Made by a program: the position numbers and the translations under genes. The notes under the pieces were generated by a model. It saw nothing but the letters and a program-made list of their open reading frames with translations. It did not search any database and was not told the DNA's origin. This document shows positions 4,538 through 42,307 of a DNA stretch of 64,000 bases, piece by piece. Each line of letters starts with the position of its first letter. Position 1 is the first letter of the stretch. Source of the DNA: a virus; the IMG/VR virus record IMGVR_UViG_3300009593_002680; one strand, 5' to 3'.

Positions 4538-5604
4538 ACATACCAACAGATGTAGAAAATTTTATAGGTAGACTTAATCCAATGGAAGTTGGAGTAGATA
4601 CTGTTGGCGATTATGTTATACATTATGAAGGCTTTAGTGATGAATGCAATGATGGATATGATGATGAACAAATACATCAAATTTATAAAGATGTTTATAA
4701 AGACTTCGATGAACGTTCAAATGCAAAACCAATAAAACGTGGTCATACATATGATGAATTAGGTGTTGACCATAATCCTGTGTTGTATAGCATTTATAAA
4801 AAAGAAGATGTTAAAGAAAGTAAGTTTTTACTTATTGATGAAGATTTAAGCGAAAGTAGACTGTTTAGATTTACTATGAGTTTCCAAAGATTAACTGGCA
4901 GAGATGTTTGCGACTTATTATATGCAGAAACACTTGCAACATATATGTTTGCATTAGATGAAAAACAACAAGATTATGGAACTGCATACGCAAGAAAAAC
5001 AACACAATATGGTCCTTATTCAGTATTTAGAACTAGTGCAACGGATATATACATGCTGGCTTTTGCTATTAATCAACCTGATTACAAGTCATTAAAGTTA
5101 GATCCTAAGGATAGAAGAATGTTAAACAACCTTAGTTTTAACAATAGACAGCACTATATGTTTATGAACAAAATTGCTAGATATACACCTAGTAGAAGTG
5201 ATGCTAGTTCGTACTTAATTAGATTAGAAGCACAATTAAAAATGAGTATGTCTAGACATGGTGCTCTCTTTAAGCAATTTAGAAGATTAATTTTAGATTG
5301 GCCAGATTTAAAATACAGTCAAAAGCAGTATGTTATTGCAAAACTAATGCAAATAATTAGATTAAAAGGTAAAGGTACAGAAATATTCCCACATTTGGTT
5401 GCAATGAAAACTAGTAGAAGATATGATAATGTTAAACCAGCAAAACCAACAAGCAATTTGAAAAGAGCCGCCGCTACAGTTGGTGGTGCTTATGTTGGTA
5501 GCAAGTTAGTTCCTAAACTTACTAAGAATAAATTAGGAAGTAAAACTGGTGCTGGTATAGGAGCCATTGCAGGTTATTGGGCAAGTGGACGTAAAAAAGT
5601 ATAA
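4534..5604 (+). CDS. Hypothetical phage protein
   Basis: 356-aa ORF overlapping the previous stop; G/A-rich C-terminus. Confidence 0.75.
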   Translation: MNIPTDVENFIGRLNPMEVGVDTVGDYVIHYEGFSDECNDGYDDEQIHQIYKDVYKDFDERSNAKPIKRGHTYDELGVDHNPVLYSIYKKEDVKESKFLLIDEDLSESRLFRFTMSFQRLTGRDVCDLLYAETLATYMFALDEKQQDYGTAYARKTTQYGPYSVFRTSATDIYMLAFAINQPDYKSLKLDPKDRRMLNNLSFNNRQHYMFMNKIARYTPSRSDASSYLIRLEAQLKMSMSRHGALFKQFRRLILDWPDLKYSQKQYVIAKLMQIIRLKGKGTEIFPHLVAMKTSRRYDNVKPAKPTSNLKRAAATVGGAYVGSKLVPKLTKNKLGSKTGAGIGAIAGYWASGRKKV

Positions 5605-5607
5605 ATA
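5600..5607 (+). promoter_or_regulatory. Late promoter box TATAAATA (predicted leaderless)
   Basis: 5 nt before ATG 5613. Confidence 0.7.
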
Positions 5608-5612
5608 CAGTT

Positions 5613-6158
5613 ATGAGAATCAACGAAGTTTTAAATAGTAAAAATTATATCACAGAAGAAGACACTATGACTTTGGCTGATGTACAAGTTATGTATGGCG
5701 ATGATCCTGAAATGATGGCGGCTATACAAAAAGCAAAGATGTTACCAAAAATTAAAACTTGGGACCAAGCAATAGATAAAGCAAGTGCTGATATGCGTAG
5801 AAATGCTAACAAAGGTCAGCAAGCCGCACCAGATAGAAAATTTGCATCTAACAGTAGAGCAAAAGGATGGGACGATGAAACTCATGGTCATTTAAGAAAA
5901 GCAAAAGCAAAAGCCGCCGCAAAAGCACAAAAACCTATGTCAGGTGATGGCGAAACAGGTGAAATTAATAGAGCCGCTGGCACTTTCATGAAGTCTGTTG
6001 GCGATGCTATGGATACAATAAAACACGGTTCAATGGGAGACATCAATACTGCTGTAGACAGAGGAAAACACGTAGGTAAAGACGGCATGGAACTGTGGAA
6101 TGTAACGGCAAAAACAAAACGTTCTAAAGACAGAGGCGGAAACTTCGGCTCTAGATAA
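5613..6158 (+). CDS. Probable virion internal protein
   Basis: N-terminus MRINEVL...ITEE. Confidence 0.55.
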   Translation: MRINEVLNSKNYITEEDTMTLADVQVMYGDDPEMMAAIQKAKMLPKIKTWDQAIDKASADMRRNANKGQQAAPDRKFASNSRAKGWDDETHGHLRKAKAKAAAKAQKPMSGDGETGEINRAAGTFMKSVGDAMDTIKHGSMGDINTAVDRGKHVGKDGMELWNVTAKTKRSKDRGGNFGSR

Positions 6159-16159: not shown

Positions 16160-16167
16160 AATAAATA
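16160..16167 (+). promoter_or_regulatory. Late promoter box AATAAATA (predicted leaderless)
   Basis: 6 nt before ATG 16174. Confidence 0.6.
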
Positions 16168-16173
16168 TGTGTT

Positions 16174-17484
16174 ATGCAAATAGCACACATCCAAAATCCT
16201 TTTTATGAGTTTATTAAGTCTTGTAATGAGCCTTGGATAGATATTGACAATATTCCAAGAACTAGTAGAGACCATATACTTGGTACATGTACATTTTTTG
16301 ATACATATTGGAAAGACATTAATAAGATAAGCAACTATATTCCTACATTATATATTATAAGTTTAGATGGTATAGGCTCTAAAGAGTTATATAAGATTTG
16401 GGAAAAACATCATTTAACAAATAAAACACTAATACCTGAGCATATTATAAACAATGATAAAGCAGTAATACTATTTGATAATAGTGCTGAAGGACATTGT
16501 GATGAATATATGTTTAAGTTCGTATCTCAAGTAGTTGACATGTATAAGTTAAATCCTAACACAACATTTTATGGTAATAGTGCTATTAATATTAAAGAAA
16601 TACACGAAAAGACAGACTATAAAAATTTTAAAACAATGTATCTTGCTAATTTTCAGGAAGATACTATGGCAGAATTATATGACGAATTAAAAGATTTAGA
16701 AGTTACATATGATAATAAAACTAATTTGTTTAGTTGTTTAAATAATGCTCCAAAACCACACAGAGCATTATTGCTAGGTGCTATACCAAATACAGTAGAT
16801 AGTTTAATTAGTACTCCAACTGTAGACTGGCAAGACATACATTCTAATACTATTGAATACTTGTTAGAGCAATCAGAGAGAAAACAAATATCTGCAGATG
16901 ATTTTGACGAAGGATTAAAATATTTAAACAGTTTAAAAGAATCGTATCCTAGAACAATAGATGATAGAACAGATGATGTTGTACACATGAAACAAGTTTC
17001 TGCAGACAATGACTTTATTAACAAATTATTAGATTGTGATTTTCAGTTAATTACAGAAACTTTTTGTGACCACACATTAGTAATTACAGAAAAAATCTTT
17101 AAAGCAATAATTATGAAACAACCTTTTGTAATTTTAGGACCTAACAGAATATATAAATTCTTACAACAACGTGGATATAAAACATTCGACCATTTACTTG
17201 GCTTAAACACATGGAAAGGTACAAGTAATTATGATAGTGAAACTAATGTTATTAGCAAAATAAAGTTTTTAATACAGCATTTAGAGACATTATCCATGTA
17301 TAAAGACAATAATACACAATGGCAAGAGATAGAACAAAAGAATAAATTAGATGCAGAACATAATTTTGAAGTATTTAAAACTAATATGAATAAAATTATA
17401 GGCTCTGCCACTGACGGTTTAGATAGTTGGTTAGAAAATTATGAAGATTTTAATATGCTTTTTGAAATTGATATAGATAAATAG
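16174..17484 (+). CDS. Hypothetical protein, possibly glycosyltransferase-like
   Basis: LITET...ITEKIFKAI...QPFVILG...GYKTF motif typical of marine phage GT-like proteins. Confidence 0.5.
   Translation: MQIAHIQNPFYEFIKSCNEPWIDIDNIPRTSRDHILGTCTFFDTYWKDINKISNYIPTLYIISLDGIGSKELYKIWEKHHLTNKTLIPEHIINNDKAVILFDNSAEGHCDEYMFKFVSQVVDMYKLNPNTTFYGNSAINIKEIHEKTDYKNFKTMYLANFQEDTMAELYDELKDLEVTYDNKTNLFSCLNNAPKPHRALLLGAIPNTVDSLISTPTVDWQDIHSNTIEYLLEQSERKQISADDFDEGLKYLNSLKESYPRTIDDRTDDVVHMKQVSADNDFINKLLDCDFQLITETFCDHTLVITEKIFKAIIMKQPFVILGPNRIYKFLQQRGYKTFDHLLGLNTWKGTSNYDSETNVISKIKFLIQHLETLSMYKDNNTQWQEIEQKNKLDAEHNFEVFKTNMNKIIGSATDGLDSWLENYEDFNMLFEIDIDK
17476..17483 (+). promoter_or_regulatory. Late promoter box GATAAATA (predicted leaderless)
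   Basis: 5 nt before ATG 17489. Confidence 0.7.
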
Positions 17485-30747: not shown

Positions 30748-30755
30748 GATAAATA
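30748..30755 (+). promoter_or_regulatory. Late promoter box GATAAATA driving the riboswitch unit
   Basis: Same box as elsewhere, at the start of the 30744-31273 gap in the ORF track. Confidence 0.7.
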
Positions 30756-30823
30756 ATTGTGTATAAATTACACACATAATGTAACTTATACACCATAAGA
30801 CATGGTTTAAAAGTCTATTTACA

Positions 30824-30944
30824 ATCGTTCATTCACTCTAAATGTAGCAGTGAACGGAAGTAGGTAACCTGAAAACCTCTTACGAAAGTAAGGCAAGCAA
30901 GTAGGCATTCGCCGAACGAGACCGACAGTAACCGAAGGAACGCA
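30824..30944 (+). ncRNA. Glutamine riboswitch-like RNA (glnA-motif type) with enlarged P3
   Basis: P1 CGTTC(30826)/GAACG(30938); P2 TTCACT/AGTGAA; junction CGGAAGTAGG; P3 GGTAACCTG/CAGTAACC; then GAAG. This matches the glnA three-stem-junction consensus as recalled. Confidence 0.82.
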
Positions 30945-30972
30945 TCTAACTTAATTAATTGAGGAGGATGAT

Positions 30973-31137
30973 ATGACTTATTACAGAGGTATCAAGTATG
31001 ATCCCAAGAAATTACAAGCAGAGAAACCTGTTTCTTTGGCCGGTATTTACAGAGGCATCAAACACGATCCTATAGTAGCACAAAAGTCTGTGTCAGCATC
31101 ACACGGTACATACCGAGGTGTAGCATGGGAAAAGTAA
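30973..31137 (+). CDS. 54-aa DUF4278-like peptide with three YRG repeats (not in ORF track)
   Basis: GAGGAGG SD; MTYYRGIKYDPKKLQAEKPVSLAGIYRGIKHDPIVAQKSVSASHGTYRGVAWEK. Confidence 0.85.
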   Translation: MTYYRGIKYDPKKLQAEKPVSLAGIYRGIKHDPIVAQKSVSASHGTYRGVAWEK

Positions 31138-31220
31138 CTTATAGGAAGTGGGAAAAAGTTGATACAATTATTCTGGCAGTTCTAGTATCTGCAATAACAT
31201 TAATAGTTGTATTGGCATAA
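31125..31220 (+). CDS. 31-aa single-pass membrane peptide (not in ORF track)
   Basis: GAGGTG SD; MGKVTYRKWEKVDTIILAVLVSAITLIVVLA; overlaps the previous stop. Confidence 0.6.
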   Translation: MGKVTYRKWEKVDTIILAVLVSAITLIVVLA

Positions 31221-31230
31221 AGTCAAAAAC

Positions 31231-31260
31231 GAAAAGGGTCGGAAACGGCCCTTTTCTTTT
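31231..31260 (+). terminator. Rho-independent terminator
   Basis: GAAAAGGGTCG-GAAA-CGGCCCTTTTC-TTTT. Confidence 0.9.
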
Positions 31261-31268
31261 GATAAATA
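31261..31268 (+). promoter_or_regulatory. Late promoter box GATAAATA (predicted leaderless)
   Basis: 5 nt before ATG 31274. Confidence 0.7.
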
Positions 31269-31273
31269 AAAGT

Positions 31274-31537
31274 ATGCCAGCAATAACAAGAGTCGGAGTT
31301 AATCAAGCAGGGGGAATTATAGTAGGCCCTGGAGCACCTACAGTTAAGGCTGAAGGAGCCAGAGTATCTCTTTTAGGTGACAAAGTTGCCGCCCATGGTA
31401 AACCACCACATGCTTCACCAAATATGGTAGGTTCTAGTAGCACAGTTTTTGCTGATGGAAAACCTGTTGTAAGAGCCGGAGATGATGCAAGTTGTGGACA
31501 TGCCGCCAACGGAGCAAGTACCGTATTTGCCGGCTAG
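31274..31537 (+). CDS. PAAR-domain spike tip protein (T4 gp5.4-like)
   Basis: Starts MPAITRVG; GSSSTVFADGKPVVRAGD, CGH and TVFAG motifs. Confidence 0.9.
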   Translation: MPAITRVGVNQAGGIIVGPGAPTVKAEGARVSLLGDKVAAHGKPPHASPNMVGSSSTVFADGKPVVRAGDDASCGHAANGASTVFAG

Positions 31538-31552
31538 AACCACTTTCGCATA

Positions 31553-31560
31553 CATAAATA
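31553..31560 (+). promoter_or_regulatory. Late promoter box CATAAATA (predicted leaderless)
   Basis: 6 nt before ATG 31567. Confidence 0.55.
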
Positions 31561-31566
31561 TTATGT

Positions 31567-32709
31567 ATGCTTATAATCCAATTTACTGAACAAATAGACC
31601 CATCAACATTACCTGTTGAAGTAATACAGTCTTTTAAATATAACACATATCTTGTTGATTGTGAAATAAGCGAATATGACGTCATTTCCAGCATAACTTC
31701 CCAATATCCGATATCAAGTATGCAATCTAATGAAGATTGTGCGTATATCGACGTCTATGAGCGTCTTACAACGTCATATACAACGGTTTATGCAGAAGAT
31801 ACACTTGCACCACTCTTAGAGAAATTAGACTTTTTAGAGGCCCTTAAACCACAAATTTTGTGTTTTAGTTGGCAAATGGATCGTAATTATATAGTAGATT
31901 ATCGTATAGAAAAACTAATTGAAGCAGGAAATATGGTAGTTTGTGCAGGTGGTAACCAAGACTTACCAGTACATGACATAAGTCCTGTTGCTGTAGATGG
32001 TACAATTAAAGTAGGTGGAAATCTGCATGATGGGCATCACCAAAACTGGATTGATATCTATGATGTAACCGTACCTAATGAACCAAACAGCAATAAAGCA
32101 GTTCATACAGTATGTGGACTTATGGCTAACAAAGAACTTGAATTAGATTACACATTAGGATATTACAGTGATAGTAGTGTTCGTAGTGCTCCTTGGCCTC
32201 TTAGACTTGCACAGACGCCGTCTAACGAAACAAAGTTCTATGAGTTTAATCCTATATCCAATTTACGATATTGTGCAGGAGAACACTTAATACCAGTTAG
32301 ACCAGGTGACCAGGTTAGCATGTTGTACGGTGGAATAGAGTTAGAAGATTTTGTAGGATATCAGTATGTAGAATGTAACACAGACTTACCACGTGGTATT
32401 ACATTTGATTTAGAAAGTGGGTGGTTGTATGGAACTTTTAAATTTAAAACAAATATGTTTCATAGATTCCAAGTTGATATAAATGGGCAACTTTTTGAAT
32501 ACCACATGATTAGTTGTGATGCAGACAATAAACTAACATACGAAGATGTAAAAGAAAAATATTTTAATAGACCATATGATTCACCACCATTTACAATGAG
32601 AGAGTATTGGGTGCCTATGGCAAGACCAGTAAAATTATTAGAGCCTGGCGATCCTTTTATTAGAACTTACAACTTAAATGATTTACATTTATATAGGGGT
32701 TACGAATGA
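31567..32709 (+). CDS. Degenerate subtilase-like protein with putative Ig (He_PIG-like) repeat
   Basis: VVCAGGN, SPVAVDGTIKVGG and YDVTVP resemble S8 motifs; LPRGITFDLESGWLYGT resembles He_PIG. Confidence 0.5.
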   Translation: MLIIQFTEQIDPSTLPVEVIQSFKYNTYLVDCEISEYDVISSITSQYPISSMQSNEDCAYIDVYERLTTSYTTVYAEDTLAPLLEKLDFLEALKPQILCFSWQMDRNYIVDYRIEKLIEAGNMVVCAGGNQDLPVHDISPVAVDGTIKVGGNLHDGHHQNWIDIYDVTVPNEPNSNKAVHTVCGLMANKELELDYTLGYYSDSSVRSAPWPLRLAQTPSNETKFYEFNPISNLRYCAGEHLIPVRPGDQVSMLYGGIELEDFVGYQYVECNTDLPRGITFDLESGWLYGTFKFKTNMFHRFQVDINGQLFEYHMISCDADNKLTYEDVKEKYFNRPYDSPPFTMREYWVPMARPVKLLEPGDPFIRTYNLNDLHLYRGYE

Positions 32710-36651: not shown

Positions 36652-36659
36652 GATAAATA
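36652..36659 (+). promoter_or_regulatory. Late promoter box GATAAATA (predicted leaderless)
   Basis: 5 nt before ATG 36665. Confidence 0.7.
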
Positions 36660-36664
36660 GTAGT

Positions 36665-37687
36665 ATGGCTAAACTACTATGGGTTAAAGGCCCACATACA
36701 ACAGACCCAGAAAGAGCAGTACAAATACAATGGAGTATGGGTAATACCTGTAACTTCAGTTGTGACTACTGTCCTACAATTCTACATGATGGTAGTAAAC
36801 CTTGGCTTCCAACAGAACGTTATTTACAAGTTGTTGATAAAATTTCCAATCACTATAAAGAAAAAGGCAGGTATATGCATTGGGAATTGCTTGGTGGCGA
36901 AGTAACTACTATACCAGACTTTGAAGAAATTATAAAACGTATTGCACATTATAATTCTAGTGTAACAATTTATACTAATGGAAGTAGAACAACAAGATGG
37001 TGGAATGAAGCAAAAGACTATTTAACAGGTGTTGTAATAACATATCACCCTTTAACAATGGACGTACAGCATTTATATGACGTTGTAAATACACTTAAAG
37101 ATAACCTTATACTAGATATTAATATTGCTGGCATAGGAGGTCGTGTAAAAGAATTAAGTGAAGTAGCAGATAACTTAAGAAATATATTTACAGATGGAAA
37201 AATGCAAAGTATATATGATGTGAATATAACAATAAAAACAATGTACAAAAAGTATTTAGGTCCAGATGCAAATCATCATCAACAAGAAGCATACTATGAA
37301 TATACTCCTGAAGAAATAACAATCATGCAAAGACCTGGAGTACTACCAAATCCAAATAGACAACCAAGCCAAGATCCAAATGACAGTATGGAACATCCTC
37401 GTTTTTGGAGTACAGAATTTATGTATGACGATGCTCCTCCAAAGTATGTACAAAGTCACCAAATTATAAATGAAGGACTTAATAAATTTAAAGGCATGAA
37501 ATGTGAATTAGGTTTTGACAGTTTAAATATTGACATGAATGGCGAAGTAATTAGTAGTTGGTGTGGTGCAAGAAACTTTGGAAATATTACACAATTAGAA
37601 AATTGGGATATACCAAAAACTGAAACAAGATGTCCTTACGAATTCTGTAACAACCTCAATGACATCAGCATAACAAAGACGTTATAA
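36665..37687 (+). CDS. Radical SAM protein with C-terminal Cys cluster (twitch/SPASM-like)
   Basis: CNFSCDYC, LGGEVT and YTNG; C-terminal C...C...CPYEFC. Confidence 0.9.
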   Translation: MAKLLWVKGPHTTDPERAVQIQWSMGNTCNFSCDYCPTILHDGSKPWLPTERYLQVVDKISNHYKEKGRYMHWELLGGEVTTIPDFEEIIKRIAHYNSSVTIYTNGSRTTRWWNEAKDYLTGVVITYHPLTMDVQHLYDVVNTLKDNLILDINIAGIGGRVKELSEVADNLRNIFTDGKMQSIYDVNITIKTMYKKYLGPDANHHQQEAYYEYTPEEITIMQRPGVLPNPNRQPSQDPNDSMEHPRFWSTEFMYDDAPPKYVQSHQIINEGLNKFKGMKCELGFDSLNIDMNGEVISSWCGARNFGNITQLENWDIPKTETRCPYEFCNNLNDISITKTL

Positions 37688-38185: not shown

Positions 38186-38193
38186 AATAAATA
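38186..38193 (+). promoter_or_regulatory. Late promoter box AATAAATA (predicted leaderless)
   Basis: 5 nt before ATG 38199. Confidence 0.65.
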
Positions 38194-38198
38194 GTAGC

Positions 38199-38783
38199 AT
38201 GTTACCATACTACTTAGACATACCCGAACTAGAATTACCTTTTACAATAGAAGATAAACCGTATGTGCAACACCCTATGGATTTAATGACGCCGACAGGG
38301 TTAGGCTTAGGTGGAAACAATTTTCAATATAGAGGAGTACCTGAAGATTGGTACATGCTCACAAAATCATACCTCGAAGAAAAACTTACAATTAAAATTG
38401 GAAGTCTAACACTTTTGAATACAATGTGTAATGCTTCAAGTCCATGGCATAGTGAAGGTCCTTCAACATTTGGACGCAGGTGTGCATTAAACTTTATGGT
38501 TGCAGGAGACTTTGAACGTAGTTATGTTCGATGGGCAAGTAAAGGAGACACTGATCCTATAGAAACATTAGACGGTAAAGGTGCATGGTGGGAAGATGAA
38601 AACTTAGAAGTTTTAGCAGAACACAGAATGACTCCAGGCAAGGCAACAATTTATAATACAATGCATTGGCACAGAGTTTTCAATTTTACTGGATGGAACA
38701 GAATGGTTATCAGTGCCGCCATAATGGAAGACATTGAAACTGTCAATAATCTTTATTTACAAGACAAATTATTCAAGACTTAA
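38199..38783 (+). CDS. 2OG-Fe(II)/cupin-like oxygenase
   Basis: PWHSE, ALNF and WHRV motifs. Confidence 0.6.
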   Translation: MLPYYLDIPELELPFTIEDKPYVQHPMDLMTPTGLGLGGNNFQYRGVPEDWYMLTKSYLEEKLTIKIGSLTLLNTMCNASSPWHSEGPSTFGRRCALNFMVAGDFERSYVRWASKGDTDPIETLDGKGAWWEDENLEVLAEHRMTPGKATIYNTMHWHRVFNFTGWNRMVISAAIMEDIETVNNLYLQDKLFKT

Positions 38784-42155: not shown

Positions 42156-42231
<76 letters not shown>

Positions 42232-42232
42232 T

Positions 42233-42307
42233 GCCCTGTTCGTCTAGTGGTGAGGACACCGGGTTTTCATCCCGGCAACAGGAGTTCGATTCTCCTACAG
42301 GGTACCA
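42233..42307 (+). tRNA. tRNA-Glu(UUC)
   Basis: Acceptor GCCCTGT/ACAGGGT, CCGGG-TTTTCAT-CCCGG anticodon arm, GTTCGATTC, encoded CCA. Confidence 0.95.

Follow-up and report, generated by a model that had tools for sequence, protein, structure and literature searches.

An enlarged glutamine riboswitch and a triple-YRG protein gene in a putative late-transcribed unit of an uncultured marine phage, with a counterpart in SAR86 bacteria

Riboswitches are considered rare in phages. The type-2 glutamine riboswitch (RF01704) occurs with short DUF4278 proteins in Prochlorococcus and Synechococcus. The type-1 glutamine riboswitch controls gifB in Synechocystis sp. PCC 6803; there, a C that follows stem P1 and the bases adjacent to it are proposed to pair with the ribosome-binding site (RBS) until glutamine draws the C into a long-range G-C pair, and glutamine binding raises translation (Klaehn et al. 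2018, PMC6212724). A survey in 2017 knew only two phage riboswitches, both of them glutamine aptamers in cyanophage genomes (McCown et al. 2017, PMC5473149); such RNAs have also been reported from T4-like cyanophages (PMC9964418) and from phage Melnitz, Pelagibacter phage Mosig and pelagimyophage metagenome-assembled viral genomes (Buchholz et al. 2022, PMC9004378). Here, we describe a cassette on the + strand (30748-31260) of a 64,000-nt stretch of the virus record IMGVR_UViG_3300009593_002680; this whole stretch is termed “the window” below. The cassette joins a type-1 glutamine riboswitch, enlarged by a conserved domain nested in its stem P3, to the gene of a 54-aa protein with three Tyr-Arg-Gly (YRG) motifs.

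Two parts of this arrangement are already known: the association of a type-1 glutamine riboswitch with DUF4278 or gifB, and glutamine riboswitches in phages; a preliminary description of this DNA had held that a riboswitch under a phage late promoter, with a second membrane peptide, would be unusual. Like the gifB leader (PMC6212724), the cassette has P1, P2, the strands CGGAAGUAGG and CCGAAGGAACG and the linchpin C, and a DUF4278 gene lies downstream; the linchpin C and the next bases pair with the RBS, and a glutamine-ON translational logic would be expected. It differs from gifB in several respects. Its P3 bears a three-way junction of about 67 nt, whereas that of gifB is a small hairpin; its protein has 54 aa and three YRG motifs but lacks the C-terminal half with which IF17, the gifB product, binds glutamine synthetase (GS); and it resides in a phage, under a T4-type late-promoter motif, with a cellular counterpart that is found in SAR86, linked to amtB-glnK, and not in cyanobacteria. 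The type-2 riboswitch likewise is a glutamine-sensing leader before a free-standing short DUF4278 peptide, but its aptamer architecture is different. Melnitz and Mosig, marine T4-like phages (Kyanoviridae, as is HTVC008M), carry the same RNA family; their aptamers, however, are short and canonical (49–54 nt; 52.8 and 50 bits), and the small, basic open reading frames (ORFs) downstream, an unannotated one of 32 aa in Melnitz and one for a hypothetical protein of 51 aa in Mosig, do not encode YRG proteins. HTVC008M and phage C48C1 gave no RF01739 match. In the literature searched, we found no public description of the nested variant, of the close association between it and a triple-YRG protein, or of its occurrence next to amtB-glnK in SAR86.

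The cassette consists, in order, of a late-promoter motif, a 68-nt leader, the aptamer, a hairpin containing the Shine-Dalgarno sequence (SD), the 54-aa gene and a terminator (Table 1). When the sequence was read out, every element listed in the preliminary description was found in its place, and the idea of an autonomous unit bounded by a T4-type late-promoter motif and an intrinsic terminator held. The reading that we favor, and consider probable, is that an uncultured marine phage transcribes the cassette late, as a unit of its own governed by a glutamine ON switch, and that the cassette was copied from a cellular nitrogen-status module. In most cases, the SAR86 form of this module is linked to glnK-amtB. 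The enlarged, covariation-supported form of the switch is common to more than 100 marine viral contigs and to about one-fifth of SAR86 species. It offers a defined RNA variant in which to look for altered or dual ligand sensing, as well as a candidate for the coupling of glutamine status to ammonium uptake or PII signaling in SAR86, an abundant uncultured ocean bacterium, and its phages.

The aptamer matches RF01739 with 50.5 bits (gathering score 35; E 4e-8; model positions 1–53), and the alignment skips 63 nt inside P3. It displays the three-stem architecture of the family, and neither of its junction strands, CGGAAGUAGG and CCGAAGGAACG, deviates from the consensus; the linchpin C, directly 3' of P1, is C30943. 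At 13 related loci, RF01739 also matches, with a P3 insert of 63–92 nt. Every relative contig that was wholly scanned yielded a match; L017 and L019, which are cut inside the aptamer, did not. Of the two models for which the preliminary description had suggested a search, that of the glnA RNA thus found its target, and that of the Downstream-peptide RNA (RF01704, type 2) had no match in the window at its gathering score and none on the nested part at E ≤ 10. No other riboswitch family matches the window in an Rfam cmscan. The proposal of a glnA-type switch before a DUF4278/YRG gene is therefore upheld by both RF01739 and PF14105. Judged by its alignment, the type-1 glutamine aptamer is genuine, and its enlarged form presumably binds glutamine.

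Is the insert in P3 a structure in its own right? The aptamer had been treated as an ordinary one, but a conserved nested domain is present. When IMG/VR was scanned for both core strands at a spacing of 52–82 nt, 107 contigs matched, and these, apart from a few plain tandem aptamers, have one architecture in common: a variable stem P3a; an invariant GAAAACCUC; a variable hairpin, Ha; GG-N-A/U-AGC-(U)-AAGUA; a short, variable hairpin, Hb; GAAC-(A)-GAGACCGA; and the return strand of P3a. We parsed 70 distinct nested versions, viral and from SAR86. For P3a, two strands of the same version form a better duplex than strands of different versions (29 distinct pairs, p = 2.4e-9), and both Ha (56 distinct sequences, p = 1.8e-28) and Hb (44 distinct sequences, p = 3.8e-8) have better folds than chimeras. 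Wherever a U is added after AGC, an A is added after GAAC, and never otherwise (17/17 versions have both, 53/53 neither), which argues for an inserted U-A pair. In a MAFFT alignment (A1), 94.1% of cells are paired (75.1% after shuffling); its covariation score of 0.434 compares with 0.134 for the shuffles and is reached by 0/500 of them. Compensatory changes occur at seven pairs, and slid controls collapse. Some 25 positions of the nested domain stay the same over 52–70 distinct sequences, while the helices vary freely.

This conservation bears on an alternative to a plain glutamine reporter. The nested junction could be a second ligand- or protein-binding site, or it could change the specificity or affinity of the aptamer; the RNA would then be a two-input or re-tuned sensor, with 2-oxoglutarate, another nitrogen metabolite or, in a feedback loop, the YRG peptide as candidates for the second input. 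Invariant positions amid freely varying helices are what binding pockets or tertiary cores typically show, and the nested AGUA...GAA beside Hb mirrors the loop-E-like arrangement of the outer core. Moreover, the domain is nearly exclusive to triple-YRG peptides, short viral aptamers standing mostly before other peptides, and no Rfam family matches it alone even at E ≤ 10; nor was it described in Rfam or the literature searched, a search that did not extend to the original consensus drawings of the riboswitch. On the other hand, the glutamine-aptamer positions of the outer core are all intact, a purely fold-stabilizing peripheral domain would explain the same conservation, the sequence yields no ligand candidate, and two viral triple-YRG genes (L280, L314) have a short aptamer. 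We consider a second or altered input unlikely and retain the glutamine switch as the preferred reading.

Several narrower ideas about the insert were rejected. A “decoy P1” role was considered for the nested GAACG, which the minimum-free-energy fold pairs with the 5' strand of P1; this idea was dropped because some members of the family have GAACA or GAAAG there instead and the loop-E-like AGUA/GAA arrangement fits better. Pairing of a nested CCUC with the SD would amount to only 4 bp, and CCUC belongs to the stem of Ha. A weak, degenerate second glutamine aptamer was discarded on the lack of any Rfam match at E ≤ 10. Separately, another nested arrangement is found at L022:815-890 and L085:5475-5551, where the P3 insert contains ATCGTTCATTCGC...GTGAACG and looks like P1-P2 of a second aptamer; the ORF downstream in L022 has two YRG motifs. 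Plain tandem glutamine aptamers, arranged head to tail before small ORFs without YRG, are present in L031, L032, L034, L046, L086 and L094.

The 54-aa protein belongs to DUF4278, as had been surmised: PF14105 scores 31.8 bits (cut-off 25.3), with residues 3–51 aligned to positions 4–56 of the 57 in the profile. It also matches phrog_5049, and its isoelectric point (pI) is 9.85. Among 36 diverse homologues, only the three Y-R-G motifs are invariant, along with one near-invariant Gly, and the linkers between the motifs are variable and Lys-rich. The invariant residues are encoded by synonymous codons (the second Arg, for example, by AGA or by CGT, CGC or CGA), which shows selection on the protein. 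Most nested loci with room downstream have a triple-YRG ORF of 52–57 aa behind a GGAGG-type SD (83 of 112 nested loci); at most of the others, the ORF picker took a wrong-frame ATG. AlphaFold2 predicts three beta-hairpins with R-G at each turn (predicted local distance difference test 79, predicted template-modeling score 0.26). Neither a profile search of PDB sequences nor Foldseek with this model detected a similar solved structure.

What might such a protein do? The preliminary description had it modulate host GS, and the corresponding alternative is that the peptide is an IF17-like inhibitor of that enzyme, made at high glutamine. In its favor, DUF4278 is the domain that Pfam assigns to IF17, cyanobacterial gifB is under the control of the same riboswitch, and the peptide resembles IF7 and IF17 in its small size and basic character. 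However, DUF4278 is the N-terminal moiety of IF17, which stabilizes the protein and is dispensable for GS inactivation, and the inhibition resides in the C-terminal, IF7-like part (PMC6316151). DUF4278 covers the 54-aa protein from end to end, leaving no room for that part. The homology is thus confined to the portion that inhibition does not need, and the GS claim is left unsupported by it. The genomic setting in SAR86, where the gene is linked to amtB-glnK and no glnA was seen among the nine flanking ORFs scanned at two loci, also speaks against this alternative, and we regard a GS inhibitor as quite improbable.

That setting came from a scan for the nested-domain pattern in one genome per prokaryotic species, which gave at least 120 matches, with a complete nested aptamer in at least 25. 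Among the matches listed, all 25 complete aptamers belong to the SAR86 cluster or to SAR86-like gammaproteobacterial metagenome-assembled genomes, on contigs of up to 797 kb, and each is followed by the conserved platform and a triple-YRG gene of 52–55 aa. The cellular counterpart was thus encountered in SAR86, beside amtB-glnK, and not in cyanobacteria, to which the preliminary description had referred. One copy is carried by 51 of 266 species representatives of the SAR86 order (about one-fifth), a lower bound because an exact pattern was matched. At one SAR86 locus, a TonB receptor gene, the cassette, amtB and glnK stand in a row. At 17 of the 25 listed loci, no more than 2.5 kb separates the cassette from amtB, which usually comes together with glnK; amtB is often directly adjacent and co-directional, and the loci represent several sub-clades and orientations. 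A profile search of SAR86 genomes G006-G010 with RF01739 gave sub-threshold, shortened alignments for the nested type (26.9–34.7 bits); routine annotation may therefore miss or under-score it in SAR86.

The linkage to amtB-glnK points to ammonium uptake or PII signaling, rather than GS, as the field of the peptide. On this genomic evidence, the peptide most likely acts there, and AmtB/PII is our best lead for its target. The T-loop of a SAR86 GlnK encoded next to the cassette reads ...SSYRGSEY..., and in E. coli the T-loop tips of PII enter the three pores of trimeric AmtB, where Arg47 blocks conduction (Conroy et al. 2007, as summarized in PMC4274968). The parallels are that Y-R-G lies at the tip of a beta-hairpin in both, that three copies would match a trimeric channel, and that both proteins would act under nitrogen sufficiency. 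However, the likeness comprises three residues and a hairpin predicted with a low template-modeling score, and the peptide lacks the PII fold as well as any site for nucleotides or 2-oxoglutarate. The resemblance is thus one of analogy, not of membership, and the notion that the YRG hairpins copy the T-loop tip is speculative and rather unlikely. A fuller version is more of a long shot: late in SAR86 infection, glutamine would induce the triple-YRG protein as a trivalent mimic of the three GlnK T-loops, which would plug the trimeric AmtB channel, or compete there or at other PII targets, and reset ammonium uptake by the host, and the nested domain would serve as a second sensing or feedback site in a two-input leader.

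The cassette is truly phage-borne and is present on contigs that are proven to be T4-like. One of these, L027, encodes tail sheath, portal, scaffold, major head protein and the late sigma factor gp55, and the cassette comes directly after gp55; in three other records, it follows gp23. The gp23 of one phage with the nested type is 63–68% identical to those of HTVC008M and Mosig (Pelagibacter phages) and Melnitz (a phage of OM43). A related 146-kb record with this type of riboswitch has gp23 and CsgG and is devoid of psbA, in line with the earlier remark that no cyanophage marker is apparent. A maximum-likelihood tree of 77 cassettes places the window lineage in a viral clade with support of 100/100. 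The cassette of SAR86 AH-326-N13 (L224, on a 317-kb contig) falls inside a phage clade with L021, L023 and L027 (100/98). This clade includes a proven T4-like contig, so at least one transfer of the cassette has occurred between SAR86 and phages. To our knowledge, almost no SAR86 phages are known, and the cassette may be a sequence marker that links an uncultured T4-like phage group to SAR86. As rough estimates for the phage of the window, SAR86 is a possible host, a little short of an even prospect; a host outside SAR86 and SAR11 is unlikely, and SAR11 slightly more so.

Late expression is suggested by the placement of promoter motifs. Bare ATAAATA is not enriched in the window (34 found, 41.6 expected); 14 of the 34, however, are followed within 60 nt by the start of a gene on the same strand, compared to 1.0 ± 1.0 at random positions. 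This is the pattern expected of T4-type late promoters, and it would fit a T4-like phage. In other phage lineages, TATAAATA or CTAAATA stands 4–8 nt before the P1 strand CGTTC, so that the transcript there would begin at the aptamer. A sigma-70-like promoter (AAGACA-17-TACAAT, 30797-30825) was rejected, as transcription from it would start inside P1. It was also observed that ATAAATA occurs only 5–7 nt before the start codons of several genes, that of the PAAR protein included, which leaves no space for an SD (31261-31276, 5601-5615, 16161-16176, 31554-31569, 36653-36667 and 38187-38201); leaderless late mRNAs would fit these sites.

The leader of the window lineage has structure of its own. 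Its hairpin (-10.6 kcal/mol, z -3.1) is equalled by 0/200 shuffles and is retained in sister lineages, with one compensatory change from U-A to C-G. The segment that follows is identical in the window, L010 and L001 lineages, whose peptides are 57–61% identical. In the centroid fold, UAUUUAC of the leader pairs with GUAGGUA of the aptamer core, and GGUUU pairs with AAACC of the nested domain. Going by this predicted fold, the segment could be an anti-aptamer structure.

How would the switch work? Nearly the whole SD is paired in a hairpin of -8.8 kcal/mol (z -3.6), equalled by 0/200 shuffles, and its closing base is C30943. As this is the role proposed for the equivalent base of gifB, we read the element as a translational ON switch. 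Without glutamine, C30943 would close the hairpin and bury the SD; with glutamine bound, it would be drawn into the long-range G-C pair of the aptamer, the hairpin would be weakened and the peptide would be translated, high glutamine being the ON state. Transcription attenuation is unlikely because no terminator lies between the aptamer and the ORF. Both the ON direction and the late timing are inferred. Downstream of the gene, the GAAA-tetraloop terminator of the preliminary description was recovered by a terminator scan: its 11-bp stem has 6 G-C pairs and is followed by a TTTTCTTTT tail, it folds at -18.7 kcal/mol (z -4.7; equalled by 0/200 shuffles), and it is kept in sister lineages with the GNRA loop variants GAAA, GCAA and GAGA.

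The long platforms of type A, found in SAR86 and most phages (e.g., L003:2936-3000 and L146:3849-3917), have a covarying 3-bp helix that changes from CGU/ACG to CUA/UAG and CAU/AUG. Through this helix, the linchpin C is paired to a site that lies some 45 nt downstream, and between the two strands is a conserved module, GAGAAGGGUGU-hairpin-AUGUACGAAAUCGA; the SD is unpaired in the consensus fold.

A relic or constitutive cassette, in which the P3 insertion or the leader disables the aptamer and the peptide is simply a late protein, would accord with the pairing of the extra 68-nt leader to the aptamer core and with an A-C mismatch at the base of P3 in some sister lineages, but it is highly improbable given the strict conservation of the core and nested junction, with compensatory changes, across many diverged phage and SAR86 lineages, in an RNA part that is more conserved than the coding part.

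Several observations nevertheless weigh against the preferred reading, that of a late phage unit with a glutamine ON switch and a SAR86 counterpart. The exclusive occurrence of the cellular form in SAR86 holds among the matches listed, and other taxa are possible. SAR86 yielded no cassette of the subtype in the window, which is marked by its P2 and its short platform, and a search of 266 SAR86-order genomes for the lineage-specific 380-aa phage protein found no copy, only weak host matches. The short platform is identical in all members of the window lineage, and consequently its hairpin has no support from covariation. The 67-nt P3 insertion could alter or add to ligand recognition. The first pair of P3 is A-C, not G-C, in the L010 and L001 sister lineages. 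Finally, GATAAATA lies 68 nt upstream of the aptamer in the window, compared to a spacing of a few nt in other lineages.

Table 1. Positions of the cassette elements and adjoining features in the window
Feature	Position	Strand	Basis or remark
T4-type late-promoter-like motif GATAAATA	30748..30755	+	matches 7/8 of TATAAATA; putative function
5' leader hairpin, 8-bp outer and 5-bp inner stem	30759..30793	+	folding vs. shuffles
Leader segment	30794..30823	+	100% identity across three sister lineages
Glutamine riboswitch aptamer (glnA RNA, RF01739)	30824..30946	+	cmscan
P1, CGTTC / GAACG	30826-30830 / 30938-30942	+	
P2, TTCAC(T) / (A)GTGAA	30832-30837 / 30849-30854	+	
Core strand CGGAAGTAGG	30855-30864	+	
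Core strand CCGAAG	30932-30937	+	
Nested three-way-junction domain in P3, ~67 nt	30865..30931	+	covariation, 70 distinct versions
Nested stem P3a	30865-30868 / 30928-30931	+	
Nested GAAAACC strand	30871-30877	+	
Nested hairpin Ha	30878-30893	+	GAAA loop
Nested AGUA strand	30894-30903	+	
Nested hairpin Hb	30904-30913	+	
Nested strand GAAC-GAGACCGA	30914-30925	+	
Expression platform hairpin pairing the SD	30943..30970	+	folding vs. shuffles; linchpin C30943 closes it
SD, GAGGAGG	30961-30967	+	
54-aa basic protein, three YRG motifs, DUF4278	30973..31137	+	Pfam PF14105
31-aa hydrophobic ORF, overlaps stop codon of 54-aa gene	31125..31220	+	doubtful gene
Intrinsic terminator, 11-bp stem (31231-31256), GAAA loop, U tract	31231..31262	+	terminator scan
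Next late-promoter motif GATAAATA	31261-31268	+	context
PAAR-domain gene	31274-31537	+	PAAR_motif, 43 bits

The window (G+C about 34%) encodes a DnaB-type helicase, a class Ia ribonucleotide reductase, the PAAR protein, a radical-SAM protein and many proteins for which no relative is known; two tRNAs at 42156-42307 are its sole RNA genes besides the riboswitch. The similarity of the reductase is uninformative on the identity of the phage. No DNA relative of the cassette and the 24 kb around it was present among 50,697 phage records, and tblastn with the peptide, a 435-aa structural protein and the 380-aa neighbor retrieved no isolate relative. Near homologues of the peptide are encoded on contigs from Tara Oceans, JGI and IMG/VR, the longest of which has 336 kb, and relatives among the Tara and IMG/VR contigs keep the gene order nrdA, nrdB, one to three small genes, the cassette, the PAAR gene and the 380-aa gene.

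The preliminary description had counted the 31-aa ORF as a second, membrane peptide. The ORF exists, with an SD-like GAGGT 6 nt upstream and a hydrophobic core, but it is not conserved in sister lineages: it is absent from L006, L010/L016 and L025, where the conserved terminator follows 25–35 nt after the peptide gene. It has no family match in Pfam or PHROG. On this comparison, its status as a gene appears doubtful.

At least 120 viral contigs (L259-L375) carry a short canonical glutamine aptamer, in each case before a small ORF that belongs to one of about eight unrelated micro-protein families; these include double-YRG proteins of 33–52 aa, Melnitz-type proteins of 31–35 aa, proteins of 64–65 aa ending in KSTNNW and of 45–54 aa ending in YITDNPFYP, and the Mosig type of 51 aa. 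Cellular fragments could be among the short contigs.

The Melnitz paper ties its switch to a transfer-messenger RNA (tmRNA) gene, and its passages on the glutamine riboswitch mention neither a downstream peptide nor a nested domain (PMC9004378). The Melnitz aptamer (L253:699-868; MZ577097.1 46398-46567) shares sequence with the 3' end of the feature annotated as tmRNA and is followed, on the same strand, by the unannotated 32-aa ORF, which is basic and has an SD-like GGGGAGAG. The published reading of tmRNA control may need to be revisited.

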